From: Arenicella xantha
Lineage (GTDB): Bacteria > Pseudomonadota > Gammaproteobacteria > Arenicellales > Arenicellaceae
NCBI RefSeq assembly: GCF_003315245.1
Contig: NZ_QNRT01000002.1
Span: 478,206 to 542,205, forward strand
DNA length: 64,000 nt
Direction of reading: 5' to 3'
Below are positions 1 to 39,530 of the stretch, one piece after another. Under the pieces are notes generated by a model. That model ran no database searches, had not been told where the DNA came from, and saw only the letters and a list, made by a program, of their open reading frames with translations. Position 1 is the stretch's first letter. Every line of letters starts with the position of its first letter. Both the position numbers and the translations under genes were made by a program.

Positions 1-675
1 AACACTGCAAGTGCATCTGTTGCGAGCAATCTTGACTTCATCGATAACCTGCCAGCAGGTTTAGTGATCGCAACGCCGGCAAATGCATTAACATCTTGCA
101 CCGGTGGAACACTCTCCGCTGTCGCAGGAAGTAGCTTAATATCCTATACCGGTGGCACAGTCGCTGCTGGTAATACCTGCAGCCTATCAGTCGATACAGT
201 CTCATCAACCAGCGGCTTGTTCATTAACGTGTCAGGAGATCTCACCTCTTCGATAGGAAACAGCGGGGTAGCGTCAGCCACTCTTACGGTAAGTGATGCC
301 AATCTCAACGACAATGACAACGACTCAATCTTAAACTCGGTCGACAACTGCCCATCTATTCCGAACCCAACTCAAGCGGACTTCGACTCGGATGGACTAG
401 GTGATGCCTGTGATTCAGACGATGATGGTGACGGCATGCCCGATAGCTTTGAACTTGCGAATGGCTTAGACCCCTTCAACTCATTTGACCAGCAAGCCGA
501 CGCGGACGCAGATGGTTTCACGAACCTCGAAGAGTTTAACTTTGGCAGCAATCCCAATATTGCAGATACAGACACTAACAATAATGGCATACCAGACTTG
601 GTTGACCAGCGCCGTAGAAATACTAGCCCATTACCGGCTATCTTATTACTTCTCGATGAACAAACCCCTGATTAG
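1..675 (+). CDS. C-terminal part of a large secreted repeat protein (5' end outside window) with thrombospondin type-3-like Ca-binding Asp-rich repeats, ending in [15 protein letters not shown]
   Basis: Frame 1 is open from base 1 (the listed ORF starts at an internal Met at 64). The DxDxDGxxDxxD-type repeats ([33 protein letters not shown]) resemble TSP3/OmpA-like calcium-binding repeats. The N-terminal part resembles DUF11-type adhesin repeats. The C-terminal motif recurs at the end of the S8 protease at 46453..48417. Confidence 0.6.
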
Positions 676-10479: not shown

Positions 10480-13400
10480 ATGAGCAAAGACGAAACACAA
10501 ATTATTGACAACGCGGTCGCCGAAGCCGGCGCCTACGATGTAATTCGCAAACGCCTTAACGAGCAAGGTTCTAATTTACAGACGCTAGCGCAACAACTGA
10601 ATCAACAACGTTTATCTGAGTTCGGTGGCGTCGAAATCCAAGCCATTGCTCGCACTCGAGTAAGAACCGAAAACAACTGTATAGCACGCGATATTGTGCG
10701 AGTTGGCGATCAGCTTTTATTCGGCTATAACGTGTTTATCGGTCTCAAAAAAGAAACTCATATCGACGACGTTTTTGCCCTATTTGAACTAGTGCAAGAC
10801 GGCGACACCTTTGAGTTACAAGCAGCTGACATCCAAAAATCATTTCTGGCCGACTCTCGTTTCCAAGGCGATTTCGACGAACTGTATCGCTACTATAAGG
10901 AATCTCGCCTGGTTCAATTACGCGTTATCGATGGCAAGCTACTCGCTGGATTCCAAGTGGGCGAACGCGCCACAGACATTCGCGTGTTTCGTTGGGCGAT
11001 CTCCGCTGACGGCAAGCAGTTTGATTACATTGACAATCGCGGGGAACGCGATATCGAGCTTCCCACTCAATACGACTTCGAGTGGATCGAAACCAGTCGC
11101 GACGACTTCGTACATGGCCGACATCCGCACGTTAACATCGCCGACACCGTATTTGTCGAAACCATTAATGGCGAGCTCACGGTCAAGGTTGAGGACAATA
11201 CTGAAGACGGTCTTGGTATCTATTCCGAACAAGTACAAGAAGCCAACCAGTCACTAGACGACGCAAGTATTAGCTATGCCAAGGTTGGCAATCTCATTCT
11301 ATTGGCCGTAACGCCATATAAAGAAGAAAAAACGCGCTACCTCGTCTTCAACTCCCTAACCCAACAAGTCGAGCGCATCGATGCCATTGGGCAGTCCTGC
11401 ATCGGCCTGCCCGAAGGCCACGGCATTATCTTCCCTGGCGGAATTTATTTAGACACGGGCGAATCGAAGTCGTTTCCAGATGACATTAATGGTTTGACCT
11501 TCAAACGCATGATTCGCTCGCCCAACGGCGAAGATGTGCTGTATGTGTTCTACGAGCAAGTCGAAGGCAAGTTCGGATTATTTAGCTACAACCTAATTAC
11601 TCGATCGCTACAAAACCCAATTTTTGGCAATGGTTATGGACTCTTTCCCGACGGCAAGTTGATCGTTTTCTCAGCGGAGGCTGAACCCACTCGTGTACAT
11701 CCAATGCAACTTTGGCAGACCTCGTATATCAGCGCCGAATTTGCCAGCGAACAACCCGAGAGCACTACCGAGCTAGGCAAGATTGGCAACTCAGAATTAG
11801 TCCGCGGCATTTCAGACCTGTTCTCTATTCACCAACTCATTGAGAAAAAAGAAGTATCAATGCGCCACTACGAGGAGCTTCGAGAGGCCACGCGTAAGAT
11901 CTTCGATATGCACTATTGGCTCGACTCCAGCGCACGACCTGAAATTGCCGCTACGTTACGCGAAGTCGGACAAACCTCTGAACTGGTTATCGATGAATTC
12001 GAAAAAGTTCAAAGCATTCAACTGCAATCGAGCCAAGCGCTGAGCGAAGCAAAATCTAAACAGCGCACACTACTAAGTCGTATTCAAACCACCACTTGGG
12101 AAACTGCCGAACAGTTTGTCGCATCGATTCTCGAAATACGTAAGCAACGCGGCCATATCGCCACCATTAAAAGCTACCGCTACATTAATGTCGAAGAGCT
12201 CGAACAACTCGAACAGGCGCTGACTGATGCTGAAACACAACTGGGAACCCAGACCACCGAATTTCTAACCGCAGAAGACTCGCTGCAGTCCTACAGTCAG
12301 CACACCGCCGCATACGCCGAACAAATCGACATGGCTCAAACGAATGCTGAAATCCGCCCCATCATTGAGTCGATTGGCGAGACCACGGCACAGTTAGACT
12401 TGCTCTCGGAACTGATCACCACCTTGAAAATCGACGACACCACAGTGCGAACGCGTATTGTCGACACGATCTCTGAGGTCTACGCCAACCTTAATCAAAC
12501 CAAGGCACGCGGCACGCAAAAGCAAAAGGGGCTCGGCTCAGAAGAAGCAATCGCGCAATTTTCAGCACAATTCAAACTATTCTCGCAGAGCATCACGAAT
12601 GCGCTCAGTGCGTCAGATACACCGGACAAATGTGATGAACAGCTAGCCAAACTATTAGTACAGCTCGAGGATCTGGAGAGCCAGTTTAGCGACTACGATC
12701 AATTTCTTGGCGACATTATGGACAAGCGCGAAGAGATCTATGAATCGTTCGAAGCGCACAAGCAAAGCCTAATGGAAGCGCGACAACGACGCGCACAAAC
12801 TCTGAGTGATTCCGCCGCGCGTATCCTCAATAGCATCGAGAAACGCTCACTTAAATTAGCTAACAGCGACGACCTAAACACTTACTTTGCATCCGATGCC
12901 TTAGTACTCAAGACCGACGAGCTAATCGAACAGTTACGCGCACTTGACGCGCAGATTAATGCCGATGATGTGCAGTCACGATTCAAGGGAATCAAAGAAC
13001 AAGCTATTCGGGCATTACGCGACAAGACCGACATCTATGAAGACGGTGGTAAAGTCATTAAGTTGGGGCCAAAACACAAATTCAGCGTCAACCAACAAGA
13101 ACTCGACCTCACCATAATTCCGCGCAACGATCAGCTCTACTTCCACCTTATTGGTACTGACTTCTATGAGCCAGTAAGCGACCCTAAACTGGCCGATGCA
13201 CAGCAATACTGGTCAATGTCGCTCGAGTCTGAAACACCGGATATCTACCGTGCCGAGACACTCGCATTTCTAGTCCTTGATGCCGCGCGACAAGGGCAAC
13301 ACGAGCTTAGTATGAAGGGTTTATACGAAGTTCTAAAAAAACCAGACGAGCTGACCAAGCTACTACGTGATTTCTCCACGCCGCTTTATAAACACGGCTA

Positions 13401-15864
13401 TCAAAAAGGCATACACGACTTCGATGCGTCACTTATTCTGCAAGCCATTTTACCGGCCATAACCGCAGCTGAGCTGTTAACCTTTGAACCGAGTGCTCGA
13501 GCACTTGCCACCGTGTTCTGGCACAACTTGCCGTTATTAGAAAACCAAGATGCAAAAGAGCTGCAAGCGGACTGGTCACAACGCGCTATTTCAAGCCGCG
13601 TATTGCGCGAGCTCTTTACCGACGATCAGGCTTTACGCCTACTCGCGGTTGAAATTCATAATGCCATTGAACGCTTCTTAGCCACCTTTCCGATTCCCAA
13701 TATGGCATCTTCCAGCTATCGAGCGGCGGAATACCTGGTCGAACATTTAGCTGAACACAGCGGCAAATTCATACAGAGTCGCTACGCACGTGATTTGCAA
13801 GCGCACTTTGACCGTAGCCTGAACAGCGAATCCAGCAAACTATTCCGTGAGTCGATCAAACGGCTGGCACATAAACCCGACCAAGCTTGGTCGAGTGCGC
13901 ACGCTTGGTTAACCGCCGTATCAAACTCCATGCGTGACTCACACCCTGAAGTATTGACCATGCAACGCTACATACCCGAAGTTATCGGTCAGCTGATAAC
14001 CGGCGTCGACACCGCAGCGTCCTCAGCAAAATTAGAACTCGAGGTTGAAGGCTTGCTCGGGGAACATAACAAGATTTCCCAACAAACCTTGTCGTTTAGT
14101 CTCGACGAATACCTGCAAAGAATGGAGCATCATCAACGTGTGACTTTGCCAGCATATCGTGATTATCTAACGCTACGTAGCGACGTCATGAAGTCCGAGC
14201 GGAACAAGCTCAAGCTCGAATCGTTTAAAGCAAAACCACTTAGTTCATTTGTGCGAAATCGCTTGGTGAATGAATCATACCTGCCGTTGATTGGTGACAA
14301 TCTCGCTAAGCAAATGGGCACAATCGGTGACACTAAACGAACCGATTTGATGGGCTTATTAATGATGATCTCGCCACCAGGCTACGGTAAAACCACATTA
14401 ATGGAATACGTGGCCAATCGTTTAGGGCTGATCTTTATGAAGATCAACTGTCCTTCGCTCGGGCATGATGTTACCTCGCTGGATCCAGAGCAAGCACCTA
14501 ACTCCACCGCACGCCAGGAGCTAGAGAAAATTAACTTGGCATTTGAGATGGGTAACAATGTGATGCTGTATCTGGACGATATTCAGCATACTCATCCAGA
14601 GTTTTTGCAAAAATACATTTCGCTGTGTGATGGCACACGACGCATTGATGGGGTATGGCGCGGTCAAACAAAGACCTATGATATGCGCGGCAAAAAGTTC
14701 TGCGTGGTAATGGCGGGCAACCCTTACACCGAATCTGGCGAAGTGTTTAAAGTTCCAGACATGCTCGCAAACCGCGCAGACATCTACAATTTGGGCGATA
14801 TATTAGGCGGCATGGACGAGCAGTTTGGGCTAAGTTATATAGAAAATGCATTAACATCCAATGCCGTACTCGCGCCGCTCGCCACACGTGACATGCAAGA
14901 TGTGTATCGACTCATCGATATGGCCAAAGGCAAGAACGTGGCAGCCACCGAACTTAGTCATCAATACAGCGGAGCTGAAATCAACGAGATCAGCAGCGTA
15001 TTCGAGAAGCTATTCGTCATTCAATCGCTAATCTTAAAAGTGAATCAGCAATACATTGCCTCCGCCGCACAGGCTGATCGCTATCGAGTTGAACCCCCTT
15101 TCAAACTACAAGGCAGTTATCGCAACATGAACAAAATGGCCGAGAAAGTATCGGCAGTAATGAATCATGACGAGCTAATGCAACTGATCGAAGACCACTA
15201 TCAAGGCGAGGCGCAGCTACTTACCAACGGTACGGAGCAGAATCTACTTAAGCTTGCCGAGTTACGCGGTAACTTAACGCCCGAAGAAACAGTTCGTTGG
15301 GAGCAAATTCGAGCCGACTTTAAGCGCAGTAAAGCATTAGGCGGAGAAGACATCGATGGCAGCACGCGAATCGCCAATCAGATGATGGACTTAGTAGCAC
15401 GACTAGACGAAATCAATGAGTCGGTTGCGAGTTCCGTGGCTGCCAGCAAACAACAACATGCTAGTGATGGAGCAGCTCAATCTAAATTGGCTGAGCAACG
15501 ACTCGAGTTAGAAGCGAAACAAACGCGCGCGTTACTAAAATCTCTGGCGTCCATTAGCGAAGCGCTGGGCACACAGGCCGCTCCTACCGTTGAAGTGATT
15601 AATCAGCCATCAGACAAAATGATCAATACACTAGACATCATGGCAGCCGCGATGGAAACCAGCATACAACCGCTACTCCTAAGCATGGAGAAGAAGATGG
15701 ATATTGATCTGCGCACCTTAGAAAAAATCCATGATTTAACGCAGCGCATCCAAACGATTAAAGATGAAGCATCCTTGACCACGCGCACGACTCAGCGCAA
15801 AACGAGCAAAACTCAGCAAGGGTCTAGTAGAGAAGCGACTAAGCAAAAGCCAAACAAGGACTAA
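10480..15864 (+). CDS. Giant (1794 aa) coiled-coil P-loop ATPase with a MoxR/AAA_5(dynein/midasin)-like module; function unknown
   Basis: Walker A SPPGYGKTTLMEY, Walker B VMLYLDDIQH, sensor-1-like VVMAGNPYT and an Arg in VPDMLANRADIYN are all present. The ATPase is preceded by a ~430-aa globular N-domain and ~600 aa of coiled coil, and followed by C-terminal coiled coil. No TM segment. Confidence 0.75.
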   Translation: MSKDETQIIDNAVAEAGAYDVIRKRLNEQGSNLQTLAQQLNQQRLSEFGGVEIQAIARTRVRTENNCIARDIVRVGDQLLFGYNVFIGLKKETHIDDVFALFELVQDGDTFELQAADIQKSFLADSRFQGDFDELYRYYKESRLVQLRVIDGKLLAGFQVGERATDIRVFRWAISADGKQFDYIDNRGERDIELPTQYDFEWIETSRDDFVHGRHPHVNIADTVFVETINGELTVKVEDNTEDGLGIYSEQVQEANQSLDDASISYAKVGNLILLAVTPYKEEKTRYLVFNSLTQQVERIDAIGQSCIGLPEGHGIIFPGGIYLDTGESKSFPDDINGLTFKRMIRSPNGEDVLYVFYEQVEGKFGLFSYNLITRSLQNPIFGNGYGLFPDGKLIVFSAEAEPTRVHPMQLWQTSYISAEFASEQPESTTELGKIGNSELVRGISDLFSIHQLIEKKEVSMRHYEELREATRKIFDMHYWLDSSARPEIAATLREVGQTSELVIDEFEKVQSIQLQSSQALSEAKSKQRTLLSRIQTTTWETAEQFVASILEIRKQRGHIATIKSYRYINVEELEQLEQALTDAETQLGTQTTEFLTAEDSLQSYSQHTAAYAEQIDMAQTNAEIRPIIESIGETTAQLDLLSELITTLKIDDTTVRTRIVDTISEVYANLNQTKARGTQKQKGLGSEEAIAQFSAQFKLFSQSITNALSASDTPDKCDEQLAKLLVQLEDLESQFSDYDQFLGDIMDKREEIYESFEAHKQSLMEARQRRAQTLSDSAARILNSIEKRSLKLANSDDLNTYFASDALVLKTDELIEQLRALDAQINADDVQSRFKGIKEQAIRALRDKTDIYEDGGKVIKLGPKHKFSVNQQELDLTIIPRNDQLYFHLIGTDFYEPVSDPKLADAQQYWSMSLESETPDIYRAETLAFLVLDAARQGQHELSMKGLYEVLKKPDELTKLLRDFSTPLYKHGYQKGIHDFDASLILQAILPAITAAELLTFEPSARALATVFWHNLPLLENQDAKELQADWSQRAISSRVLRELFTDDQALRLLAVEIHNAIERFLATFPIPNMASSSYRAAEYLVEHLAEHSGKFIQSRYARDLQAHFDRSLNSESSKLFRESIKRLAHKPDQAWSSAHAWLTAVSNSMRDSHPEVLTMQRYIPEVIGQLITGVDTAASSAKLELEVEGLLGEHNKISQQTLSFSLDEYLQRMEHHQRVTLPAYRDYLTLRSDVMKSERNKLKLESFKAKPLSSFVRNRLVNESYLPLIGDNLAKQMGTIGDTKRTDLMGLLMMISPPGYGKTTLMEYVANRLGLIFMKINCPSLGHDVTSLDPEQAPNSTARQELEKINLAFEMGNNVMLYLDDIQHTHPEFLQKYISLCDGTRRIDGVWRGQTKTYDMRGKKFCVVMAGNPYTESGEVFKVPDMLANRADIYNLGDILGGMDEQFGLSYIENALTSNAVLAPLATRDMQDVYRLIDMAKGKNVAATELSHQYSGAEINEISSVFEKLFVIQSLILKVNQQYIASAAQADRYRVEPPFKLQGSYRNMNKMAEKVSAVMNHDELMQLIEDHYQGEAQLLTNGTEQNLLKLAELRGNLTPEETVRWEQIRADFKRSKALGGEDIDGSTRIANQMMDLVARLDEINESVASSVAASKQQHASDGAAQSKLAEQRLELEAKQTRALLKSLASISEALGTQAAPTVEVINQPSDKMINTLDIMAAAMETSIQPLLLSMEKKMDIDLRTLEKIHDLTQRIQTIKDEASLTTRTTQRKTSKTQQGSSREATKQKPNKD

Positions 15865-15953: not shown

Positions 15954-17498
15954 TTATTTAACAGAGTCAGGACAACAACCACACACCGTCATCGGTACGC
16001 CTTTGTTGGTCCACTGCCCGTTCCACTTCGAGAAACCAGCCTGTGGTGCACACGCCGTTGGGCACGCCGCATCAGCTTGCGCTTGATTATTAATAAGAGT
16101 GGCCGACGCTACGTCTTTGCATTGCCCCAAAATCATGTCATCAAAACTATGACTTAGATGCGCAGCAAACGAAGTATTTGGTTGGTTCGCCACATTCGCG
16201 GTGCCGTTGTAGTTGTGACATCCGAAACAATTCAATGCGCCGCCGCCGTTTGCCGCGCTCCCTTGAAAAGTTGTCTCCAATACCACATTCGCTAGCTCTA
16301 ATGAGCCACGCTGATTGGTGGTCGATGCGGGGCTAGACGAACCTGAGCCTTTACTGATATCCGAAACCCACAAAGCCCCATTGAATTCGTAACTTTTCCA
16401 CACATCAAGACTAGCCGGTACGCCTGCGCCAGCCAACACGGTTTGTTGCGCTGCATTCAACTTTTCAATCAACGCAATATTAAGGCCATTACGTGTATCA
16501 ATAGGGTCGCCCTCTACCGTGCCATACGGAAACTCTTGGCAGATATCATTGCCACGCTGACCTGACGGCAAGCTAACCGTCGTAAATGGTTGAGACTCGT
16601 TGAGTTTTTGGCAGGCTGTGGCGTCGACTGCGCAAGCCTCGCTGGTAAAATCGTACGCCGATTGACCTTTGGCCATGTCCGCACAATCAACCGCATTGGC
16701 CTGATGGTCGAGGGTAATCCACACCATTTCTGGATGATTATCCGCCGCCACAACGATATGCCAGCCAATCATGCCAAGTGTGTAATCTACTCCATCAATG
16801 GTCGCATCTGACAACACAAATCCATCAGTGCTCTCATTCGGCTTCATGACTCTCCAAGCCATTTTCATTTCCACCGTTTTAGCTGGAAAGTTTGGCTCTG
16901 ACTGAATCGCTGCATAGTCACACAGATTATGCGACAAACGAATTTCGTAGAAAACCACGTTACCGGCTTGATCATAGATCGCGTGAGCGCCCGCTTGGTC
17001 TGTTCTTTCCGGCAAAATAATAGCGCCAGTATCGTCAATGGTTTTAGCGGTACGAATACTCAAACCCCGATCCTTAGTTGCACCGTCGCACGAATTTGCG
17101 CCTATTTCCAGCACCGGATACTGGGCTTGATCTTGCCAATTAGCCAAACCCGGTTTAGCACTTGGTGAAATCAGATACAGAAACCAGTCTTGTGCGAATT
17201 GGTAGAATTCACAAAATTCAGGAGAACCCGTCACTGGGTTACTGGCAATACTTCCAGGCACCTGCGTCACCGAACGTTGCCACCAGTTGGCTGCCTGACT
17301 AAAATCACAATTTTTGACCTGATCGGCATTCGACAAGCTCGCTGCTACAGCACTCGGCTCAGCCGCCCAAAGGGTCGGGGAATAAGCACTTTGTGCTATC
17401 ACAAAACTGGTTACAAGACACACGGCAATCTGTTTAGCGAGCCACAGACGTGCCCTTTTGCCACGAACATTCATTTTTGCAAGGATAATTTTTCTCAT
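15954..17498 (-). CDS. Secreted hypothetical protein with a single CXXCH (CFGCH) heme-binding-type motif near the C-terminus
   Basis: Start chosen at MRKIILAKMN… (GGAG RBS) with signal peptide …VIAQSAYS. The C-terminal region is Cys-rich (CFGCHN, CPTACAPQ, CGCCPD). Confidence 0.5.
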   Translation of the reverse strand: MRKIILAKMNVRGKRARLWLAKQIAVCLVTSFVIAQSAYSPTLWAAEPSAVAASLSNADQVKNCDFSQAANWWQRSVTQVPGSIASNPVTGSPEFCEFYQFAQDWFLYLISPSAKPGLANWQDQAQYPVLEIGANSCDGATKDRGLSIRTAKTIDDTGAIILPERTDQAGAHAIYDQAGNVVFYEIRLSHNLCDYAAIQSEPNFPAKTVEMKMAWRVMKPNESTDGFVLSDATIDGVDYTLGMIGWHIVVAADNHPEMVWITLDHQANAVDCADMAKGQSAYDFTSEACAVDATACQKLNESQPFTTVSLPSGQRGNDICQEFPYGTVEGDPIDTRNGLNIALIEKLNAAQQTVLAGAGVPASLDVWKSYEFNGALWVSDISKGSGSSSPASTTNQRGSLELANVVLETTFQGSAANGGGALNCFGCHNYNGTANVANQPNTSFAAHLSHSFDDMILGQCKDVASATLINNQAQADAACPTACAPQAGFSKWNGQWTNKGVPMTVCGCCPDSVK

Positions 17499-18029
17499 AG
17501 TACACTCCATATAACGGGGCTTTTGATCTAGCTTTGTATAAAGCTATTCATCTAGCCCCAGATCGTTAATAACTTAACAACAAACTGTGCTGTTAATCAC
17601 TCAATATGAGGGCGTCTAAGCGTCAAAACGGTGATGCGTTGTCGCAACATTCCATGCGGTCCTTTCCTGCCAAGCGCTATACCGGCTGGACACAACAGTT
17701 TAGTTTTTAAAAACCGTAATGCGCCAGTTTCTCCATAAGCTCTACCAAAACTATAGTAAAGCTTAATGTGATATTACGTTGGCGATGCCGTATCGTCCGT
17801 ATGACACAAATTACTTAAATTGCCGACTCCACACCGCCCCCCAGCGCGCGGTAGTCAGTCAAAAACTTGTCTGCTAACCGACAAGCTCCTAATTACCGTA
17901 AACTCTTTTTCTGGACAATGATACTGACGTTAGTCTAATAATGTAACTGCGACAATACTCACCTAATATTCCACTTCGCCAATTAAAATATTGCTGCGCC
18001 CTTTAAATTAGCTCTTTAGGATCCTAAAC

Positions 18030-20069: not shown

Positions 20070-22226
20070 CTAAGGATTGATCTTGAGCGCGGGATCCCCA
20101 AGCAAATGCCAACCAAGTTGCACCGCCGGAAAATCGCTATACTGAGCCAATGCTTGCTTGGCCTGAATCATTGCCTCGCCGATAGTCATACCCTTAAGAT
20201 ACATGCGCTTATTTAGCTCAATACCTAACGCGCGCTCACCGACAGAACTAGTCAATGTCGATGCGCCCATAACACTAGCCGCCCCGTTCTCACCGGACAG
20301 CAGCAACATGTCGGATATCGTGTTGCCTCGAGGATCCACAAAATACGTGTTCCAGCAGCCCCACTGAGTAACCACCGTGGGCTTATTAAGGTTCGTTAGA
20401 TCGGCCACCTGCGATGCTCGCAACATTGGAGGAGTGGTATATGCCCAGCTCTGTTGTGATGAGTGCCCAATGTAAGACACCACCGACACGCCTTGGTTGA
20501 TGAGGCTTAGTAGCTTGTCATGCGCTTGCTGGTGACCATCGATATCAGGATAAACGCGAAAGTCTTCACGTACTCCATCGGACCACTCGCTCGGAATCGC
20601 AGCGATCATGTCGTCGGCATCCTTAGAGAACGACACGCCATTACCAAGGTCGTTCTTATCGGTCACCACCACTGTTCTACCTAAATACCCTGAGCGATTC
20701 TCATAGGCCTTGATCTTGCTCACTACATTGGCCAACTCACTCGGTGTTCTCGCGGAAATACGCGCCACCACCAGTTCGGGTATGCCATCTTCATTGAGGT
20801 CACCGTAGGCAACATCAGACGGAGTTTGAGTAATAGTCAGCGCACCACCTGGCGTAGTCACATAGCGCGTAGGTACTAAACTGACTGAACTCGAAGTGAT
20901 GTTTTTGTAGTCCAGCGTATCGCTGCCAAGTAGCACAACCATCGTCGTGCCCATATGCGTCGCTGCGTGCTTAATGTACGACTGGATCCCTTCCGCGCCA
21001 AACATGTGATGACCGAACTGAGCATAGATATCCGCCACATCGACGACCTTAACGAGGTAGTCTTGTGCGCGTAGTGCAACGAGTTCGTCGAGCGCTGCCC
21101 CTTGCAAACTAGCATGCGTAATAATCAGATATTCAGCGGTACCCGAAGTAATGTCCGTTGGCTCGAGAACCTCTTGCACTGTGGGTTGCGGGTAAGCGGA
21201 TTCACCAATTACAAGATACTCAGCGGCTACACCGCCGGTATTAAACACCACCGAGTCATCTTGATAGCGGATTCCGCGCTTATTTAGTTTTTCGATATGG
21301 CCATCGTCCAAACGCCGATAGACATTAGCCGAAGCTTCACCAAAGTTAGATACTTCGAGTTGCTCGGCATCAACAAAGCCAGCCAGATATCGTTGACCTT
21401 CGGCATCAGCAGAACGTCGATAGCTTACGCTGAATTGGTTCAGCGCAATCCGATCAAACGGCACGCCGGCAATCGCACGATAATTATATTTAAGTGTATT
21501 CGTACCTGCCTGTAAGGGTGCATTGTCAATCGCAAGCTGAGTCGCCGAATTGCCATCAAACTGCTGATCACCAACGACTATGCCATTTACTTCAATTTCA
21601 AAGTGATGATCATTGCCTTCAATCGCAAAATCGAGCAATCCGTACATATCAACCGTAATATCACCTACCGTTGCCGCAAGATTATCAACCTCAAATTGGT
21701 AACTCGGCGTGGCAAAAAAACTAAACGTCTGACCAAAGTGATAAGGGTCAGTAGATGATGGTGAGGAGAAATCATAAGTAACATTACGCTCAATCACCGC
21801 GGTATGTAGATAACTTGAAGCAGACTCCAAGCGTCGATTAACTCGGGTATGAAATGTTTGTATTGACTTACGGTTTGCTAGCGAACGATTAGCCAGCATA
21901 TGTAGCACATACACTTGTTCGTCACGGTACAAACTATCAGCGGGTTCAGCATAAAATTCAATGTAGCCGCCTCCTCCAAACTGACGATTGCGACCACCGC
22001 CTTTACCCGCTGTGGCTAACTGAACCCACTCGCCATTCAGACTCAAACCAAACCGGTCGTGCCTTAAACCGGCCAGATCAGCTCCAGCGTCGACCAACTG
22101 CTCGTAGGTAATGCGATGCATACCAGCTTGTGTAGTACTCAACGTCAATAATTCGAACGCAGCCGCCGTGTTTACAAAACCGCAAACTGCGAGTGCACTA
22201 AAGAACCTAATAAATAAATTTTTCAT
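20070..22226 (-). CDS. Secreted peptidase C25 (gingipain/PorU-like, clan CD) family protein
   Basis: Signal peptide. The catalytic-domain start pattern AEYLIITHASLQGAALDELVALRAQDYLVKVVDVADIY is present. A His-Gly-type motif YIGHS sits ~36 aa before a hydrophobic-block Cys (VVTQWGC), the clan-CD spacing. It lies 25 bp downstream of the giant adhesin and is probably co-transcribed. Confidence 0.5.
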   Translation of the reverse strand: MKNLFIRFFSALAVCGFVNTAAAFELLTLSTTQAGMHRITYEQLVDAGADLAGLRHDRFGLSLNGEWVQLATAGKGGGRNRQFGGGGYIEFYAEPADSLYRDEQVYVLHMLANRSLANRKSIQTFHTRVNRRLESASSYLHTAVIERNVTYDFSSPSSTDPYHFGQTFSFFATPSYQFEVDNLAATVGDITVDMYGLLDFAIEGNDHHFEIEVNGIVVGDQQFDGNSATQLAIDNAPLQAGTNTLKYNYRAIAGVPFDRIALNQFSVSYRRSADAEGQRYLAGFVDAEQLEVSNFGEASANVYRRLDDGHIEKLNKRGIRYQDDSVVFNTGGVAAEYLVIGESAYPQPTVQEVLEPTDITSGTAEYLIITHASLQGAALDELVALRAQDYLVKVVDVADIYAQFGHHMFGAEGIQSYIKHAATHMGTTMVVLLGSDTLDYKNITSSSVSLVPTRYVTTPGGALTITQTPSDVAYGDLNEDGIPELVVARISARTPSELANVVSKIKAYENRSGYLGRTVVVTDKNDLGNGVSFSKDADDMIAAIPSEWSDGVREDFRVYPDIDGHQQAHDKLLSLINQGVSVVSYIGHSSQQSWAYTTPPMLRASQVADLTNLNKPTVVTQWGCWNTYFVDPRGNTISDMLLLSGENGAASVMGASTLTSSVGERALGIELNKRMYLKGMTIGEAMIQAKQALAQYSDFPAVQLGWHLLGDPALKINP

Positions 22227-22250
22227 AGCTATTTCTCGATCGTCGCTAGT

Positions 22251-25200
22251 TTAGTTTTTCGATTCAGACTCAATGCCTGTATCGTCCGCTTCTGGCAGAT
22301 CTAGATCGTACTCACCGGATGATCGTAGCTGGTTCAAACGTCTATTAATGTTAGTACGTACTGAGTCAACATCCTCCACCTTCGGGCGAATCCGTGACCA
22401 ATCGAACTCTTCTGGGGTAATCATATTTGCGCCATAAGAAGCATCAGTCTTGAATGGACCATGTGCTGTGACTTCCTCGGCATTTGATATATCCACCAAT
22501 GAAAACCACTTAGCATCGGTATTTACTCGGTGAACGTATTGTCGTGTTTCCATGGCTTCACCAGGGCGACCAACAATCATTTCAGGCGTTAATAGAGTCC
22601 ATTGATCGGCCTCACGAGAGTAGATTTGGAAACCCGCATGACCTACTTCGTTACTGGTTTCCCAACTAATTTCTACCCAATCGCCTTGACGCTCAGCTTT
22701 CAAATAATTGATGGTTACTGGCGTCGTTGCAAACTGTTGCTGATATGCGAAGTCAATGGCTGACTGCGTTGCGCCACCCGATAACGAGTAGCTCGGCGAT
22801 GCGTTGTCACACAGCGCTGCAGTCGGCGAATCACAAACGCGATCTTCTGGCAATGGTTCACCGGCTAGATCTGGGTCACCGGTCTGTCCGTAACCATCAA
22901 CCACAGAGCCACTGGTAACCACTTCGACTCGATAGTTACCGTCCGGCAAATTTGCAAAACTATAATCGCCATTGGCGTCTGTAGTGGTTTCCGAGAGCTT
23001 CACAAAACTACCGCCCTGCTCCACATACAACTCTACAACCACCGCTTGGGCTGGCACATCGGCATTACCACCAGGGCTACCGTCTAATTCCGTCGCTTCT
23101 AGTGTGCCGTTGTCATCAGGTTCGACCAAAGAGATATCCTCTATCACGATGGTGCCGCTAATTTCGTTCGACCCATTGACCCCGAAATCCGCGGTCAAAT
23201 TAGGCGAGTTAGTGGTCAGAGCATAGGTCCAAGGCTTAGCTAGATTGTCACCAACCCCGCCGGTCACCAAGGTTCCGTCACCAATTTCGCTATAACCTAC
23301 CGCATCGAGCACAACAACAATATATTGCCCGCTCGGCAAACTGGTGCAGTAATATTCACCATACTGATTAGTTCGTACCGTTCGAACCAAATTGTCCACA
23401 CCTGGCACTGGCGCATTAGTTACCAGACCTGGATCATTTGGCGTCTCGCTGGAATCACTGTCTAACCAACACTGAATAGTAACCCCCGAAATTCCCGGCT
23501 CATCGTCATCGATAATGCCATCGGCATTAACATCGAACCAAAACCGGTTGCCTATAGAACCTAATTTAACGTCCGACACATACCCTGCGTCTTGCCCAAC
23601 GATATCTGCACCGCCAGCAATAACGATTGGAGTAGGAATCACCTCAAGGGCATTCAAACCGCTTGTCACGCTCGATAAATCCGTGACCTGAATCGTATAG
23701 CTGTCATCTGGCAAACCATTGAAAACGTAGGATCCGTTGGCATTGGTTTTAGTGGTAGCCACCACATTTCCACCGCTATCTAGCAAGTTCAGCGTAACGC
23801 CTTGAAACTCACCGTCGTCAGCGGCGAGATAATCACCATTTGCATTTGAATCGGAGTAAATAGTGCCGGCAATGCTACCTAAATCGCTACCAACTTCAGG
23901 ATTAAAACCGAAGTCAAGGTTGCCAATATTGTTATCCGAATCACTCGCCAAATCGATTGGGAAGTAATTAAATGATCCAACCGACAGATTGGTCGGCTGT
24001 GTATCGTTTAAGTCAACGCCCGCCGCGCCATCAACATCAGCTGACTCATAGCCAACGATTAGCCCGTCAATTAAATCAGCGCCGGTGATACCGGAAATAA
24101 TCCAACTCCCATCAGCGTTGGTGGTAGTGGTTAGAATAATGTCGCCCTGTGGGTTCGCTCCGGTTGCAGTAGATGAGTCATAAATATTGACAGTCACTCC
24201 AGCAATTGGCGCTTCGCCAGCATCGTGAACGCCATCGTTGTCGACATCTACCCACATAAATCCTGACAGAATACCGTCACCGACACTCGGCTCGTAACCT
24301 ACATCCACCTCAGTCACACGTTCACCTTCTGATAATAGAACGGCTTGTGGGTCAACCGTCAAATCTAGGCCTGCCGGAATATCAGCGGGGTTTGCATCCA
24401 CCAGATATTCACCAGCCACCAGGTCAGGGAATATATATTCGCCATTCGCGTCAGTTTGAGTCGAAGCAACAAACTCGGGGTCAGTGGGATCACACGGAGG
24501 GGAAGCAATTGGGCTGGTACACAGATAAACTGTCATACCCGACAAATTCAACTCAGGATCATCAGCCAAACCATTGGTGGTGCCGCCGGCATTTGCCGCG
24601 TCCACAAACAATTCCCCAGAAATTGAGCCGGTCACTTCGTCGTTGATGTAACCGAAGTCAACATCACTTACATCGGCGCCGGCAACACTTACCGACAGCG
24701 CATCTAAACCACTGGTTAAGTCATAGCCAGACAATAGCGATGCCTGGTCTGTTACCGCTACCACATAGTCACCATCGGCTACACCCGAGAAGCTGTAATC
24801 GCCACTCGAATCCGTCACCGTGGTAGCTAGCACTACCGACGGCAACACACCGTCATCATCCGCCAAATCGGGCAAAACCACACTACCGTTGCCGTTCATA
24901 TCGAAGAGACCAGCAATCACCGCCACGCCGTTTACCGTGGCCGTATCTGCCGCGTCTATCAGCGCGTCACCATTGATGTCGATATTACCGTCAATTACGC
25001 TGTAGCCAAGATACAGTCCATCATCAGTGGCGTCGATCAAACCATCACCGTTGATATCAAGCTGGCCGTCAATGACTTCAAGTTCGGCACTTAGCAGTGA
25101 TAGTGTCACGTCCGCAAAGCCAACCTCACCAAGGTCTTCTACACCATCTTTGTCGGCATCCACAAACACCGTGCCAGAAACATCGTTCAGCGTTGCATCA

Positions 25201-28200
25201 ACATAACCAAAGTCCACGTTGCTAGCGCTGCTGCCTAGTTCCAGAGTTAACTCTGTGGCGTTGTTAACAGCACCATCTGGATCTTCGGTTTGCGCACCGC
25301 CAGGGGCGGTCACAAGCACTTGGTAATCACCAGGCACCAGACCATCAAAGGCATAGCTACCATCAGACCCAGAATTTACTACCGACACGGTTGTCTCGTA
25401 ACTTCCGTTGCCATCGGTGTCTTGCAGCAACGTTACCACCGTACCACCAATGCCTAACTCGCCATCAGTTTGATCTGCGCTGGAGTCTGCGTCGCTATAA
25501 ATTACGCCGCTTATCGAACCAGAATTGTTAAAACCGAAACTATCTTGGTTATCGGTGACGCCACCAGCGACGATTACGGCATCAGAGAGTAAATTCTCTG
25601 CTTCGGATGTCGTTCCATTAAAACCGTTTAATTGGCCCTCGGTATCGTTGACCGCTAATAAATAGGTACCATCCTCCAAACCAGTAAACGATACATCGCC
25701 GTTTTCATCAGTCTGCTGAGTCGACACCACATCCGGCTGGCCATCGCCATTTAGGTCATCCGGAATACCATTTGAATCATTGTCTAAGTAAAGATTAATT
25801 GACACGCCAGCAACACCATCTTCGCCAGGGTCTTTAATGCCGTCTTGGTTCGTGTCGATCCACACCGTATCTTCAATCGTATTGAGCGCAGGATTATCAA
25901 AACCAAAGTCCACGTCGGTTACGGTCGACACACCGATATTGAGTGTGATCGGCGAACTGGTATAAGCACCTTCGCTTTGGGCACCGAGCGTTGGCGTGTA
26001 ACCAACTAATTCGGGATCGGTGGCGCTTAAGCGCACAGTGTAGTCGTCGCCAAATGCCACATTGGTAAACAAGTATGACCCATCAGCACTGGTGGTCGTA
26101 GTGTCTAGCAATATGCCTGACGCGTTATACAGCTCAACCACCACACCAGCAATGCCAGCCTCACCAGCATCTTGAATACCATCGCCGTCAGCATCAGCCC
26201 AAACGAGGTTGCCAATTGCGCCAGTATTGGCCGGCGCAACATAACCAAAATCAATACCAGTAACTGCATCGTTGGGTTCCAAAGAAACCGCTTTAGGGTC
26301 AACACCGCCAACACCAAAGGTGTTGATTAAACCCGCTGGTAAGGTAGTGTCATCAACGTTAATCGTATAGTCGCCAACCGGAACATCCGTGAAGGAATAC
26401 GCCCCATTCGCATCGGTAACGGTGGTCGCTGCCACGCCGCCTAAGTCATCCAATAACTCAACAACAATACCAGACAGCTCGGCTTCTTCGAGATCGTTGA
26501 TCCCATCTCGGTCTTGATCTAACCAAACACTGCCGCCAACACTCGATGTTTGAGCATCAACAAAGTTGTTATTCGCGTCGACTTCGTCAACCGCCACCGA
26601 CACAGGAATCTGATTGTCATTGGCATTGCCGTTGCCCGCTGCATCGGTGTCTACTGATTGCGTATCACTCACCGATGAATAACCCGCAGGGTCGACCTCG
26701 ACAATCACGTAATCGCCAACTATGACGTCTTCAAATAGAAAGTCTCCGTTAATATCCGTCACAGCCGTATAAGCTAAAACTCCGTCGCTAGGATCACCGT
26801 CACCATTTGGGTCGGTGTACAACAGTATACTTACCCCAGCTAGATCAACATCACCAACACCATCGAAGTTCTGATCGGCTGATACATTGCCAGACACATC
26901 TCCCGTGGCAAGTTGGTCGGTCACTGAACCCTCAATCGGTGTGGGCAATTCTACCGACGTGGTCGACGCCGTGTTTTCTAGCTCCGTAATTCCGGCGGCA
27001 ATAGGGTCATCAACAATTACATCAAAAGTGACTACCAATGTCTCCCCTGGCGGCAAGTCTATATCATCGCCTGCGGTCACCATATTTGGTGGCGCACTCG
27101 CAGCATCGTTAATTGTTCCTAAGTACTCGTAGTTAACAGTGAAATCAAGCGAGCCTGAGGTGTTCGTGCCGCCAGACAAAGTGTATGTATCTCGCCATTC
27201 GAACGAATAGTTACCTACCGCGTTACCTGTCTGCGCATTTGGGCCAAAAGTTACGTTCCATGGACCTTGGTTATTGCCTCCAAAGCTTCCAGGGCCAAAG
27301 GCATATGTCGTGCCATTTGCTATCGACACATCAAGCCCTATGTCACTGCGCCAATCAGTTGTGCCGCCAGCACTTGCGAAGGCGAACGACGTTATAGAGC
27401 TGTCTGCTGGCAAATCAGGTGTTGTGTTGTAAGCTTGGGTCAGCGTGGATGCAAAGTTTTGATTCGCCGCGAATATATGATTAAAACTATCCGAAACGAG
27501 CCCAGGATAAGTTTTTTGCGCAGTTGCGTTCACATACGTCACACCGGGTGGCAATAAGTCGCTTAATGTAACGTCGTTGGCAGTGCCTGAACCGGTGTTG
27601 GTGACGGTAATGGTGTAGGTAAGCGTATCGCCAGGGCTCACAGCGGCGCCGGCCGCACTCGATACTTTAGTGATCTCGAGCTCGGGTTCATCGACCGCAC
27701 AAAAAGTAAATCCAGCCAACCTTATCGCATGACCATCACTTTCACCGTGCGGTGCTGGTTCGCCGCCACTGGCTTCCGCTGCCGCATCATCTGGCCCATT
27801 TGAGTAACTCACACTTAACGAATCAATCAAATTTGGCGCACTAATCGTAATCTGCCCTGCTGGATCAGTTGTCGCTACACCACCGGACACGCCTGTGACA
27901 TAGTTTGCCGAGGATGTCTGCCCTACCACTGTCACATTGCTGCCAGCGTTTGAAATTGTAATCGGCACATTCGAGCCACTTAGGCTTGCGTTGACTTGCA
28001 CCACGTCTTGGAACGATGACACAGGAAGCGTATTGCTTGGCGCGTTGTAACCAACATCGTCTATATCGGCAACCTGATAATCCACAACATAACCTGGTTC
28101 TGAAAACGAAAATTCAAAGCCGACCACATCGGTCGAGTCGCTTGAAGCCATGCCAACCGTTAAAAAGCCGGTACCAAAAGCCCCATTTGTTTCGGTAGTA

Positions 28201-28601
28201 ATATCCAAACCTGGCGGTGGATCAATGTCACAACTGCCACCGGCCGCTATGACATTAGCCGGACAAGTAAAATTTGAATCAAAATTTCGACCATCAGGAT
28301 CGATTAAGGTTGCAGTCACGACAACACTTTGCGGATTACCAAGCCCGTCCGTATAGTTGACCGTATAGTTTTGGCTCGCGCCATCCGTATTATTGGTGTC
28401 TAACCACTCATTGCCAGTACCCACGCCGGTCGACCAAGAAAAAGTCGCCGGAGAACTATTAGCCGGACATGTTTGTGCATACCCAGAGGTCGGGAATAGT
28501 AAAAATATTCCGATCGTGGCTAATAGCCCAGAGTGTTTTGCATCCAGCGAACCGAAAATACACCCAACCAAATCGCGAAACTTACGATTGAATTTCATCA
28601 A
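22251..28601 (-). CDS. Giant (2116 aa) secreted adhesin-like protein with DUF11 and many SdrD-B/Cna-B-type Ca-binding repeats
   Basis: Signal peptide. DUF11-like segment [34 protein letters not shown]. More than 10 repeats of the (F/W)xDx(N/D)xDGxxDxxExGxxGVxVxL type, giving extensive intragenic DNA repeats. Confidence 0.8.
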
Positions 28602-30921: not shown

Positions 30922-30991
30922 TTGGTTGTAGCTAAGCGGTCTAGCAATGAGATTTATCTCATGTACGCAGGTTCGATTCCTGCCATCCAAA
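30922..30991 (+). pseudogene. Degenerate tRNA-like sequence (cloverleaf with a perfect T-arm but a 6-nt anticodon loop and one acceptor mismatch)
   Basis: Acceptor TTGGTTG/CATCCAA (6/7), D-arm GCTA-AGCGGTC-TAGC, T-arm GCAGG-TTCGATT-CCTGC. The anticodon stem ATGAG/CTCAT leaves only ATTTAT as the loop. Confidence 0.4.
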
Positions 30992-30995
30992 CACT

Positions 30996-31063
30996 AGTAG
31001 CTCAGTGGGTAGAGCAGCGAACTATTAATTCGTCGGTCGCGGGTTCGAGTCCCGCCTACCAAC
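30996..31063 (+). pseudogene. 5'-truncated tRNA-like sequence (tRNA-Asn-like body; loop CTATTAA, anticodon ATT instead of GTT)
   Basis: Canonical D-arm GCTCAGTGGGTAGAGC, anticodon arm GCGAA-CTATTAA-TTCGT, T-arm GCGGG-TTCGAGT-CCCGC and a 3' acceptor strand CTACCAA, but no matching 5' acceptor strand. Confidence 0.45.
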
Positions 31064-37732: not shown

Positions 37733-38042
37733 AATCATCGTTCAAGCGTCTGGATACTTCTATAAAAAATAGCGCTGACTGATGGTTATTTCAGAGAAAT
37801 ATACCGCAGATAGAGCAAACGCAGCCACCCAAGGTACAGCGTAAGTCTTTGAACGAAATTAATTCTCAGAAAAACCTTCTAAAGCCGTTCACGTATTTTT
37901 AAAAAAGACTCACTTAATTGAACCATACCTGTTCCGCTAAACACTTATAGGGAAGTACGTGTGTTTCCTCGTCAGGCATCACACAGTCATTAGCGGTGTT
38001 CGCCAACTTTGGTTGAACAATCTAGAAAGCGGAAGGTTTAAT

Positions 38043-39530
38043 ATGGTTCATTTCTCACGTCAATTGTGTCGGTCCTTGTCTTTGTTTTTCACGACTTTGG
38101 TTATTCATGGAATAGTCCTTTCAGCGTCTGCCGCCGAAGTTCCTGAGTATCAGGACATATTTCCTGAGCTGTCGTTAAATGGCAGCATCAACAGAATCCA
38201 AATGACGGAAAGCGGAAAACATCTGGTGGCATTGGTGGAGTCTGCCACTACCGGACAGAATGAACTATTTAGTATTCGCTTAGATAACAGAGTAGCTACC
38301 AAGCTGCATGTACCCTTAAACGGAGGTAACCAGGTTTCAGGTTTCAAAATAAGCCCGAATGGGAATCTGGTAGTGTATCGGACTCAATTTCTTACAGACT
38401 CGTCTGATCAACTATTTAGCGTCTCAATCAATGGTGGTGAGTCCGTCGTACTTAATCCCTTGTTGCTGAGCAATCGCTCTGTGAGGGATTTCTTGATTTC
38501 ACCCAACAGCCAATTTGTTGTTTTTCAAGGTGATATCGATGTCGACGAGAGAAGGGAAGTTTACAGCGTCCCCATTCAAGGAGGTACAGTAATTAAGCTG
38601 AACTCAAATCTTATAAACGGACAGTCTTTATTTGGCCTTGAGATAACGCCGAACAGTGATCGAGTTATCTACAGGAAGACAGACCCGAGCTTTAAGACTG
38701 ATCTTGTCAGTGTGCCAATCGGCGGCGGCTCAGAGGTGCGTTTGCATCCAACACGAACGAACGGCGCATCTGCAAAAAGTTTCGGCACGTATTCCTCGGA
38801 TGGTCGTTCAGTTTTATTGGGGTTTGGCTATGGACTTTTTCAGAGTGAAGATGTTTTTATAGCCACAATCGATGGAAGCACACCGCCACTGCATGTGGTT
38901 AAGCGGTCAACTACCGATTTCAAGATATCTGAAGCGCACTTTACTTTGGATGATCGATTCATCATTTTTCTCGGAAAAAATGAAAGCGCTACATCAAATA
39001 ATCAACAGCACTTATTTAGATCCGACCTTGCTGAGGACGCTGCGCTGGTGCGATTCACACCGATATTACCCAACGCCTTAGGTATTCGCCAACCTTTTCT
39101 TCACCCAGACGGTATCCACGTTGTCTATCGAGCAACACCTAGCACCTCGAATATATTTGAAGTATTTCAGATACCAATTGCCGGTGGCGAGCCAGAGTTA
39201 TTAAGTGGCGTCAGCTCTGCTAATTATACAACCAATGACTTTCTGGTAAGCAGGGATGGTAAACATATAATGTTCAACAAAATTCTATTACCTAGTTTCG
39301 TCCAACAACTATTTGTGACTTCGTTTAATGATAAAAAAACCAGCGCAATTAGCGACACCTTCTTCACCGAATCGGAAAGTACCATTGGCTATGACATAGG
39401 GTCGTCGATCTCAAACTCACTCTTCCTATCGCTAAATCGTGATGCCGTGTTTGTTCCTAAAGTCGAAAATGATGAGCTTTGTGTGCCTATTAAAGTTAAA
39501 AATGGTCGTGTCGCAGTAGTCTGTTTATAG
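38043..39530 (+). CDS. Secreted TolB-like PD40 beta-propeller repeat protein ending in ELCVPIKVKNGRVAVVCL
   Basis: Signal peptide MVHFSRQLCRSLSLFFTTLVIHGIVLSASAA (RBS ggaagg). Repeated blades of the form (F/Y)SxxxxGGxxxxL…(I/F)SP(N/D)…V(V/I)(Y/F). The C-terminal motif is shared with the protein at 58336..60066. Confidence 0.6.
   Translation: MVHFSRQLCRSLSLFFTTLVIHGIVLSASAAEVPEYQDIFPELSLNGSINRIQMTESGKHLVALVESATTGQNELFSIRLDNRVATKLHVPLNGGNQVSGFKISPNGNLVVYRTQFLTDSSDQLFSVSINGGESVVLNPLLLSNRSVRDFLISPNSQFVVFQGDIDVDERREVYSVPIQGGTVIKLNSNLINGQSLFGLEITPNSDRVIYRKTDPSFKTDLVSVPIGGGSEVRLHPTRTNGASAKSFGTYSSDGRSVLLGFGYGLFQSEDVFIATIDGSTPPLHVVKRSTTDFKISEAHFTLDDRFIIFLGKNESATSNNQQHLFRSDLAEDAALVRFTPILPNALGIRQPFLHPDGIHVVYRATPSTSNIFEVFQIPIAGGEPELLSGVSSANYTTNDFLVSRDGKHIMFNKILLPSFVQQLFVTSFNDKKTSAISDTFFTESESTIGYDIGSSISNSLFLSLNRDAVFVPKVENDELCVPIKVKNGRVAVVCL

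Follow-up and report, generated by a model that had tools for sequence, protein, structure and literature searches.

We analysed a 64,000-nucleotide (nt) stretch of the Arenicella xantha genome (RefSeq assembly GCF_003315245.1, contig NZ_QNRT01000002.1, positions 478,206 to 542,205), hereafter referred to as the window, in whose coordinates all positions are given. On its minus strand, a gene for a giant secreted repeat adhesin is directly followed by a gene for a cysteine peptidase of family C25. Sequence comparison indicates that these two genes represent the split form of a conserved cassette, in which a cargo, a fibronectin type III-like (FN3-like) domain and a C25 module resembling PorU follow one another. 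Based on the evidence presented below, we consider it very probable that the adhesin and the peptidase are functional partners derived from one chain.

A cassette shared across phyla, split or fused

C25 relatives were obtained by scanning one genome per species, which yielded 355, and the best 80 of these loci, coming from Arenicellales, other Gammaproteobacteria, Chloroflexota, Acidobacteriota, Myxococcota and a few other groups, were used. A total of 81 related loci were compared, taking as domain query the final ~105 structured residues of the adhesin in the window (…HGPF). In 79 of the 81 loci an FN3-like domain immediately precedes the C25 module, and the other two are contigs that are cut at this point. 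The arrangement is split in 31 loci, where the domain closes a separate upstream gene, as in the window; and it is fused in 48 loci from Chloroflexota, Acidobacteriota, Myxococcota and other Gammaproteobacteria, where the domain belongs to the C25 reading frame and is separated from the C25 module by a linker of 27-294 residues. These counts agree with a first-pass annotation of this DNA, made from the letters alone, which had supposed that homologues of the peptidase would be linked to large surface proteins. The window pair itself carries the FN3-like domain and an (I/F)DW tail at adhesin residues ~1957-2068, followed after 24 nt by the C25 gene. The A. xantha genome contains two C25 paralogues, each adjoining its own adhesin, and the paralogue P0010 lies 15 nt downstream of a gene for a 3629-residue SdrD_B protein. 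Adhesin–C25 pairs also occur in tandem (adhesin, C25, adhesin, C25), namely, at L005/L008, which are overlapping ranges of chromosome OY769919.2, and at L080:1-14635; the pair therefore duplicates as a unit.

The reverse test, starting from the FN3-like domain, consisted of an exhaustive profile search of 1.84 billion representative proteins, which was used instead of a word-indexed search with a short FN3-like alignment that gave only two matches and was too insensitive. This search returned 32,058 matches at an expectation value (E) ≤ 1e-3, and 4,748 at E ≤ 1e-10, and the 150 best were classified. A C25 module is present in the same protein in 113 of these 150, ~700-830 residues before the C-terminus, and the domain lies 13-160 residues from the C-terminus in another 26, which are split forms or fragments. 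One of the latter, P0215, is followed by a gene for a 741-residue C25 protein with an overlap of 4 nt. Nine further proteins lack a C25 module and contain the domain in several copies; Pfam identified fibronectin type III repeats in three of the seven that were scanned. The last two look truncated. Because of this reverse search, the superfamily is described as broadly FN3-like, and it is the subfamily with the HGPF…YG…DW ending that is tied to C25.

The passengers that precede this cassette are diverse. Among 35 fused representatives, we found GEVED (8), DUF7933 (6), DUF11 (6), DUF7507 (5) and SdrD_B (2) domains, and others with FG-GAP, CAP or CARDB, together with many in which nothing could be recognised; in several fused proteins GEVED stands directly ahead of the FN3-like domain. 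A constant C-terminal cassette on varied cargo is typical of a module for sorting, anchoring or processing, and not of a single-target protease. In a separate observation, the passenger of L046:73-7839 (Anaerolineales) displays, by eye, four motifs of GH13 alpha-amylases (DGVFNH, GWRFDVGGD, GEEWG and GSHD), and the cargo may therefore be an enzyme and not solely an adhesin.

Four fused proteins from Arenicellales and other Pseudomonadota (L028, L033, L065 and P0082) have as their linker a long stretch rich in Lys, Arg and Glu, after which comes, in the middle of the frame, a hydrophobic signal-peptide-like segment with an AxA site. These proteins may be intermediates between the fused and the split forms, or they may make use of an internal start.

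The gene pair and its C25 peptidase

The adhesin gene (22251..28601, minus strand) encodes 2116 residues and was delimited from the open reading frame (ORF) list and its translation, with Pfam matches to SdrD_B (11 stretches), CarboxypepD_reg, SpaA and DUF11; its start codon is TTG, with an ATG one codon further on. The peptidase gene (20070..22226, minus strand; 718 residues), which was recognised as PorU-like from the ORF list, its translation, Pfam and NCBIfam, follows after an intergenic spacer that includes a GAGAAA ribosome-binding-like site (22227..22250, minus strand, read from the sequence). The first-pass annotation had reported a repeat adhesin followed by a secreted protein at a distance of 25 bp: both ORFs and their adjacency were confirmed, while the spacer actually measures 24 nt. 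Signal-peptide-like leaders were identified by eye in the two translations, at ~residues 1-42 of the adhesin (…LLFPTSGYA/Q; 28476..28601, minus strand) and at residues 1-23 of the peptidase (…NTAAA/FE; 22158..22226, minus strand). A terminator scan found no terminator-like site within the spacer, and gave a weak match with a 5-pair stem at 22192..22180, that is, within the first codons of the C25 gene. Co-transcription of both genes is plausible.

The 718-residue protein is 100% identical to an Arenicella xantha protein that NCBI names 'C25 family cysteine peptidase', and its membership of this family is already annotated knowledge. In agreement with this name and with the first reading of the window, Peptidase_C25 (PF01364) matches residues 366-715 (20082..21131, minus strand) on positions 1-373 of the 374 in the model, with an E-value of 2e-59 and 202.2 bits against a cut-off of 23, and the catalytic domain is likewise matched by Kgp and RgpB in the PDB. 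When the single sequence was searched against the PDB, Kgp was retrieved with an E-value of 1.4e-7, with His588 placed on Kgp His444; when a profile of 14 homologues was used, the matches were PorU (6ZA2; E 2.7e-28), RgpB (E 1e-18) and Kgp.

The profile alignment also locates the catalytic dyad that had been anticipated. RgpB H211 and C244 coincide exactly with the 'GH' and 'GC' of the family, which in the window protein are His588 (codon at 20463..20465, minus strand), within IGHSS, and Cys624 (codon at 20355..20357, minus strand), within QWGCW. Both residues are invariant in 14 out of 14 diverse C25 homologues, and at least 90% conserved in 35 proteins that were retrieved through the FN3-like domain, independently of C25. 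In the same alignment D536 falls on RgpB Asp163, which we take to be the S1 specificity residue of RgpB, and the SFxxD consensus is kept in 11 of the 14 homologues. The window protein is thus a true member of family C25 with an intact dyad, for which peptidase activity is predicted. Inspection of its translation and of its Pfam matches revealed no membrane anchor, lipobox or known wall-binding domain.

Homology to PorU and structural models

The relationship to PorU extends beyond the catalytic domain, as residues 24-365 (21132..22157, minus strand) form a beta-rich N-terminal region that is homologous to the N-terminal domains of PorU according to NCBIfam models, profile comparison and Foldseek. 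In alignments with the fused proteins, the mature N-terminus of the window protein falls on the strand with which conservation of their C25 module begins. In the alignment to the PorU model, residues 29-717 cover positions 10-733 of 1095, and the C25 family profile aligns to residues 32-786 of PorU 6ZA2. The scores are nevertheless below the family thresholds, namely, 136.8 bits for PorU (NF033707), with an equivalog cut-off of 420, and 131.6 bits for PorU2 (NF052324), with a cut-off of 450. The protein stops right after the catalytic domain (…LLGDPALKINP), and neither Pfam nor NCBIfam detected a type IX secretion system (T9SS) C-terminal domain, including Por_Secre_tail or related domains, in the adhesin or in the peptidase. 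T9SS genes have been reported as absent outside the FCB group of phyla (PMC11285876). No match to a T9SS component turned up among the window ORFs, only some of which were scanned and none specifically for T9SS.

A structural view of the cassette was obtained with an AlphaFold2 (AF2) model of the fused homologue P0091 (Myxococcota, 1128 residues), which is 33% identical to the window peptidase in the modelling alignment. Its predicted local distance difference test (pLDDT) score is >90 from the FN3-like domain to the C-terminus, except for ~78 at linker residues 441-450, which suggests that the FN3-like domain and the C25 module form one compact unit in the modelled protein. In the PDB this model comes closest to PorU (Foldseek E 1.3e-26 over 786 columns), with RgpB and Kgp next (E 4e-17 to 3e-14; target TM-score 0.6-0.65). 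Through this homologue, the caspase-like alpha/beta fold that characterises C25 is also predicted for the window peptidase.

The adhesin and its C-terminal FN3-like domain

The first-pass annotation had described the adhesin as an SdrD-B/DUF11 protein, and this content was found as stated. A DUF11 domain occupies residues 308-369 (27495..27680, minus strand; PF01345, E 2.8e-11; TIGR01451, E 3e-13), and a region of diverged SdrD_B or CNA-B-type repeats, whose boundaries are approximate, extends over ~residues 560-1930 (22812..26924, minus strand), with the 11 SdrD_B stretches reaching a Pfam E-value of 5e-117. Calcium-site-like D.D.DG motifs span residues 576-1690. The repeats had also been thought to comprise more than ten near-identical DNA copies, and to be substrates for recombinational length variation. 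This turned out to be incorrect: Tandem Repeats Finder detected no tandem DNA repeats in the gene, down to a score of 30, and a repeat finder gave only three imperfect families of 23-34 nt. These are old protein repeats, which have diverged at the protein level and are poor substrates for variation of this kind. The adhesin scores 201.7 bits against the model for MSCRAMM SdrD-type adhesins (NF012181), under its cut-off of 2500, and its translation has no LPXTG at the C-terminus; it shares with those adhesins only the type of B-repeat domain.

At the C-terminus, the final 162 residues were modelled with AF2 (mean pLDDT 86.5), which predicts a sandwich of seven to eight strands (residues 1963-2057), an FDW turn and a helix (residues 2078-2094). 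The FN3-like beta-sandwich domain comprises ~residues 1957-2060 (22422..22733, minus strand). It is followed by the F-D-W motif at residues 2066-2068 (22398..22406, minus strand), recognised by sequence conservation, and by a predicted amphipathic helix (22320..22370, minus strand; model residues 124-140, pLDDT 84-90). The motif after the domain has the family consensus (I/F)DW..(I/V)(R/K), in which D and W each reach at least 90% conservation across 42 sequences. The tail helix corresponds to the start of the linker in the fused relatives, and comparable tails are present in relatives from Arenicella. None of 26 members scanned with Pfam and NCBIfam gave a match to the FN3-like domain, whose fold is generic and not recognisable as that of a T9SS C-terminal domain.

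Lasso-peptide genes next to the fused relatives

Clustering of the neighbours in the 81 loci revealed a conserved gene set that immediately follows the C25 gene, in many cases with the stop codon of one gene overlapping the start codon of the next. This set encodes an asparagine-synthase-like protein of ~650 residues, an HPr-kinase-like protein of ~300 residues, and PqqD and Transglut_core3 proteins, which are the cyclase C, kinase, B1 and B2 functions of lasso-peptide biosynthesis. It occurs in 29 of the 37 fused loci that have at least 3 kilobases (kb) of downstream flank, with L032:12056-15939, L046:7932-11488, L087:3085-11728 and L097:3190-11737 as examples. Small genes between those of the cyclase and the kinase encode precursor peptides, with a conserved leader (Y..P.L…GD.R..T(L)) and a core of the form G-G/A-S/T-P-G-x-G-D-S, whose ring-forming Asp or Glu is at position 8-9. 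A scan of metagenome contigs started from these precursors, using a profile of six sequences, recovered 16 loci, and in 4 out of 4 of those with enough flank an FN3-like/C25 gene lies within or directly adjoining the lasso genes.

This reciprocal association points to an ancestral cassette that acts jointly with a lasso peptide. No lasso genes were found in the window, however, at E up to 10, nor in the Arenicella-genus loci L001-L024. The association therefore leaves the Arenicella pair unexplained.

A proposed mechanism and its alternatives

We read the two genes as the split version of a conserved secreted architecture, in which a signal peptide, a variable passenger, the FN3-like domain with its DW tail, a linker and the PorU-like module, itself made up of beta-rich N-terminal domains and the C25 catalytic domain, are arranged in this order. 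In Arenicella the break would have occurred in the linker: the FN3-like domain, with a tail of 56 residues, would have stayed on the adhesin, and the peptidase would have acquired a signal peptide of its own. Both products, to judge by their leader sequences, would be exported through Sec. The FN3-like domain and tail would then dock on the C25 protein, restoring the unit that is a single chain in other phyla, a step to which gene fission and the confident single-chain AF2 model of a fused relative both point. Lastly, the His/Cys centre would cut the C-terminal tail or linker of the adhesin, and the outcome could be either release of the adhesin or its PorU-like transfer to a surface acceptor. 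That this entire chain takes place, from export and docking to cleavage, by a partner dedicated to the neighbouring adhesin (or occasionally to more than one), free of T9SS and without a general sortase role, seems to us about as probable as its opposite. It is supported by the linkage in 79 of 81 loci, the invariant dyad, the whole-length homology to PorU, the confident model of P0091 and the diversity of passengers.

Several points weigh against it. Binding and cleavage are both steps that we infer. A basic residue after DW is common in the fused forms and is not conserved in Arenicella-type tails, and in the latter no conserved cleavage residue is seen, so no cleavage site can be named. Fission also leaves no linker to be cut, and the dyad is still kept, such that the substrate could be something else. 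Moreover, pairing is not strictly one to one, as illustrated by a metagenome contig (BBAY85_10000014; L100:4365-25115) that contains a tandem array of two SdrD_B adhesins, each encoded by a pair of ORFs with a 4-nt overlap at a conserved junction (…HLTLM, followed by the stop). Both second ORFs end in an FN3-like tail, and a single C25 gene comes after the array; the junction may reflect either a genuine design in two genes or a programmed frameshift. Finally, proteins of this size would also have to pass the outer membrane in Arenicella.

The main rival to cleavage of the adhesin is that the C25 protein is an effector, which degrades external proteins for nutrition or attack, and that the adhesin brings it to its target without being a substrate. 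A dyad that is conserved after fission, when no linker needs a cut, is what such an effector would show, and its catalytic domain does resemble RgpB and Kgp, including the position of D536 on RgpB Asp163 and the SFxxD consensus in 11 of 14 homologues. Gingipain complexes, in which catalytic and adhesin domains stay together, offer a precedent, and some passengers are themselves enzyme-like, if the GH13-like motifs seen by eye in L046 are considered. However, a single C-terminal cassette on a very wide range of passengers fits cargo handling better; whole-length homology is closest to PorU and not to the gingipains; and GEVED, which usually precedes C-terminal sorting signals, stands directly before the FN3-like domain in several fused proteins. 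We therefore regard the effector as rather unlikely. A module that is mainly structural or anchoring, for instance a surface base for the adhesin, with a protease centre that is unimportant or serves self-maturation only, would account for the mostly stoichiometric pairing, be it gene to gene or within one chain, and for the compact and confident AF2 model of the FN3-like domain with C25. Such a role appears improbable given that His and Cys are invariant across phyla and in the split forms, which argues for retained catalysis, and that the 718-residue protein has no visible membrane anchor, lipobox or known wall-binding domain.

The first-pass annotation had raised the hypothesis of a dedicated processing or attachment protease for large surface proteins, with sorting as performed by PorU in the T9SS, extended to proteins of the window that bear two types of C-terminal tag, PLPAI and VCL. 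The link of the C25 protein to its own neighbour survives, because there is usually one C25 gene per adhesin, while a general role for the tagged proteins does not. Indeed, a PorU-type sortase or signal peptidase serving many surface proteins is very hard to sustain. The PorU-like architecture, the tagged proteins of the window, two of them with a choice-of-anchor Q domain, and the one C25 gene that follows two adhesins in L100 speak in its favour. They are countered by the several C25 paralogues per genome beside their own adhesins (two in A. xantha; the tandem pairs of L005/L008 and L080), by the fusion of the enzyme to its cargo in most phyla, by a PorU score (137 bits against 420) below the cut-off with no T9SS C-terminal domain detected, and by the tags themselves, which do exist in the window as described but are unlinked to C25, since neither lies closer than 10 kb to the C25 gene at any of the 81 loci. 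With the lasso genes in 29 of 37 fused loci, their conserved precursors and the reverse link in 4 out of 4, it may also be asked whether a lasso peptide is the companion of the C25 module, which would be its target, its regulator or the enzyme that processes it, the Arenicella pair being a remnant. This we hold to be quite improbable, as neither the 64-kb window nor L001-L024 has lasso genes, lasso peptides are made in the cytoplasm, from which the C25 protein is exported, and no mechanism joins the two.

Returning to the proposed partnership of adhesin and peptidase, a bolder version is that the cassette is a self-contained, T9SS-free sorting device, employed by at least four phyla on very different passengers, in which a sortase built into the cargo cuts and then releases or covalently attaches it to the cell surface, in many lineages together with the conserved lasso peptide from the same operon; Arenicella would have a two-gene derivative that lost the lasso link. 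This version is speculative and we think it unlikely, but if it were true, it would also suggest that PorU of the T9SS derives from cargo-fused enzymes, or gave rise to them.

Comparison with known systems

By analogy, the window peptidase would work most like PorU, that is, as a C-terminal processing enzyme beside an Ig-like domain of its cargo. The two share whole-length homology (N-terminal beta domains plus C25 domain), the His/Cys dyad, and a secreted cargo whose Ig-like beta-sandwich is beside the place of action. They differ in that the window protein is under the family cut-off and has no counterpart to the final ~360 positions of the PorU model, among them the T9SS C-terminal domain of PorU itself; in that its host phyla are reported as T9SS-free (PMC11285876) and its cargo domain is FN3-like; and in that the enzyme is here usually fused to its cargo, or present as one per cargo, whereas PorU serves ~30 cargoes in trans. 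With RgpB and Kgp of Porphyromonas gingivalis, the window pair has in common the catalytic fold and dyad and the association of protease and adhesin domains. These domains stand in the opposite order here, however, with adhesin first and protease last, no gingipain-type prodomain or T9SS C-terminal domain was found, and the N-terminal half is PorU-like.

LapG–LapA of Pseudomonas provides another dedicated cysteine protease for one giant repeat adhesin in a gammaproteobacterium. LapG, a periplasmic enzyme from a different family of proteases, acts under the control of cyclic di-GMP on an adhesin exported by a type I secretion system, whose N-terminal retention module it cuts. In contrast, Sec-type leaders are present here on both proteins, the link is at the C-terminus of the adhesin, and no RNA element was found upstream. 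The pair also resembles the dedicated sorting systems of sortases, exosortases and rhombosortases with a single target, in which the enzyme is encoded beside its cargo and the recognition element is at the C-terminus of the latter. Those systems rely on short tags with a transmembrane helix and on enzymes embedded in or anchored to the membrane, whereas here a folded recognition domain of ~100 residues and a soluble C25 peptidase would take their place. Caspase-like peptidase domains of clan CD occur in large bacterial surface proteins and toxins, the MARTX cysteine protease domain among them, and have been proposed to cut their own chain (PMC3482391). These autoprocessing domains are internal, are not of C25/PorU type and have no FN3-like partner, unlike the present cassette, which is always C-terminal and exists also in split form.

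To our knowledge, almost all work on C25 peptidases has concerned the gingipains and PorU of Bacteroidota. The loci compared here join a PorU-like enzyme, through fusion or as a neighbouring gene, to varied secreted cargo in Gammaproteobacteria, Chloroflexota, Acidobacteriota and Myxococcota, from which T9SS is reported to be absent. No published description of the cargo–FN3-like–C25 architecture, or of a linkage between C25 and lasso peptides, was found in the literature searched, and the phylum-spanning cassette, its split form in Arenicella and the link to lasso clusters appear to be undescribed in the libraries and literature that we consulted. If the module processes or anchors its cargo, it would be a new route for giant surface proteins and also provide an annotation rule, useful since neither Pfam nor NCBIfam offers a model of the FN3-like partner. 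The reciprocal link to lasso clusters offers a possible biological context for one family of lasso peptides. As for the Arenicella pair, it is a natural two-component version in a cultured organism, in which binding and cleavage are directly testable.

Other features of the window

A search for a third conserved gene in Arenicella-type loci led to a candidate that was rejected, as the 192-residue secreted protein and the dienelactone hydrolase encoded downstream of the pair are shared only with the closest relative, L002. Rfam revealed neither a riboswitch nor another RNA element upstream of the adhesin, and its matches in the window are two adjoining tRNA genes (30922-31058, plus strand; RF00005, 47.6 and 54 bits), ~2.3 kb upstream of the adhesin gene.

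The ends of the form …NPLPAI(L/F)LLLD… belong to a partial repeat protein (64-675, plus strand) and to a subtilisin-like protease of 654 residues (46453-48417, plus strand), and no NCBIfam sorting domain matches this short hydrophobic tag. Proteins with the VCL tag are encoded at 37959-39530 (plus strand), 58336-60066 (minus strand) and 50780-52348 (minus strand); two are secreted proteins ending in ELC(V/F)PI...NG.x.A.VCL, and the third has a related end. A choice-of-anchor Q domain (NF041518; E 4e-9 and 3e-17), which usually precedes a sorting signal, is present in two of the three, and the VCL-type end may be an undescribed C-terminal tag.

The remaining observations concern three other genes of the window. 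A protein of 1794 residues (10480-15864, plus strand) contains DUF3686 (E 5e-198), DUF7902 and an AAA ATPase domain, and is preceded by a membrane protein of 620 residues (8213-10075) that has no Pfam match. A secreted protein of 518 residues (15954-17510, minus strand) carries at its end a cysteine-rich mannan-binding lectin (MVL) domain (E 3e-6).

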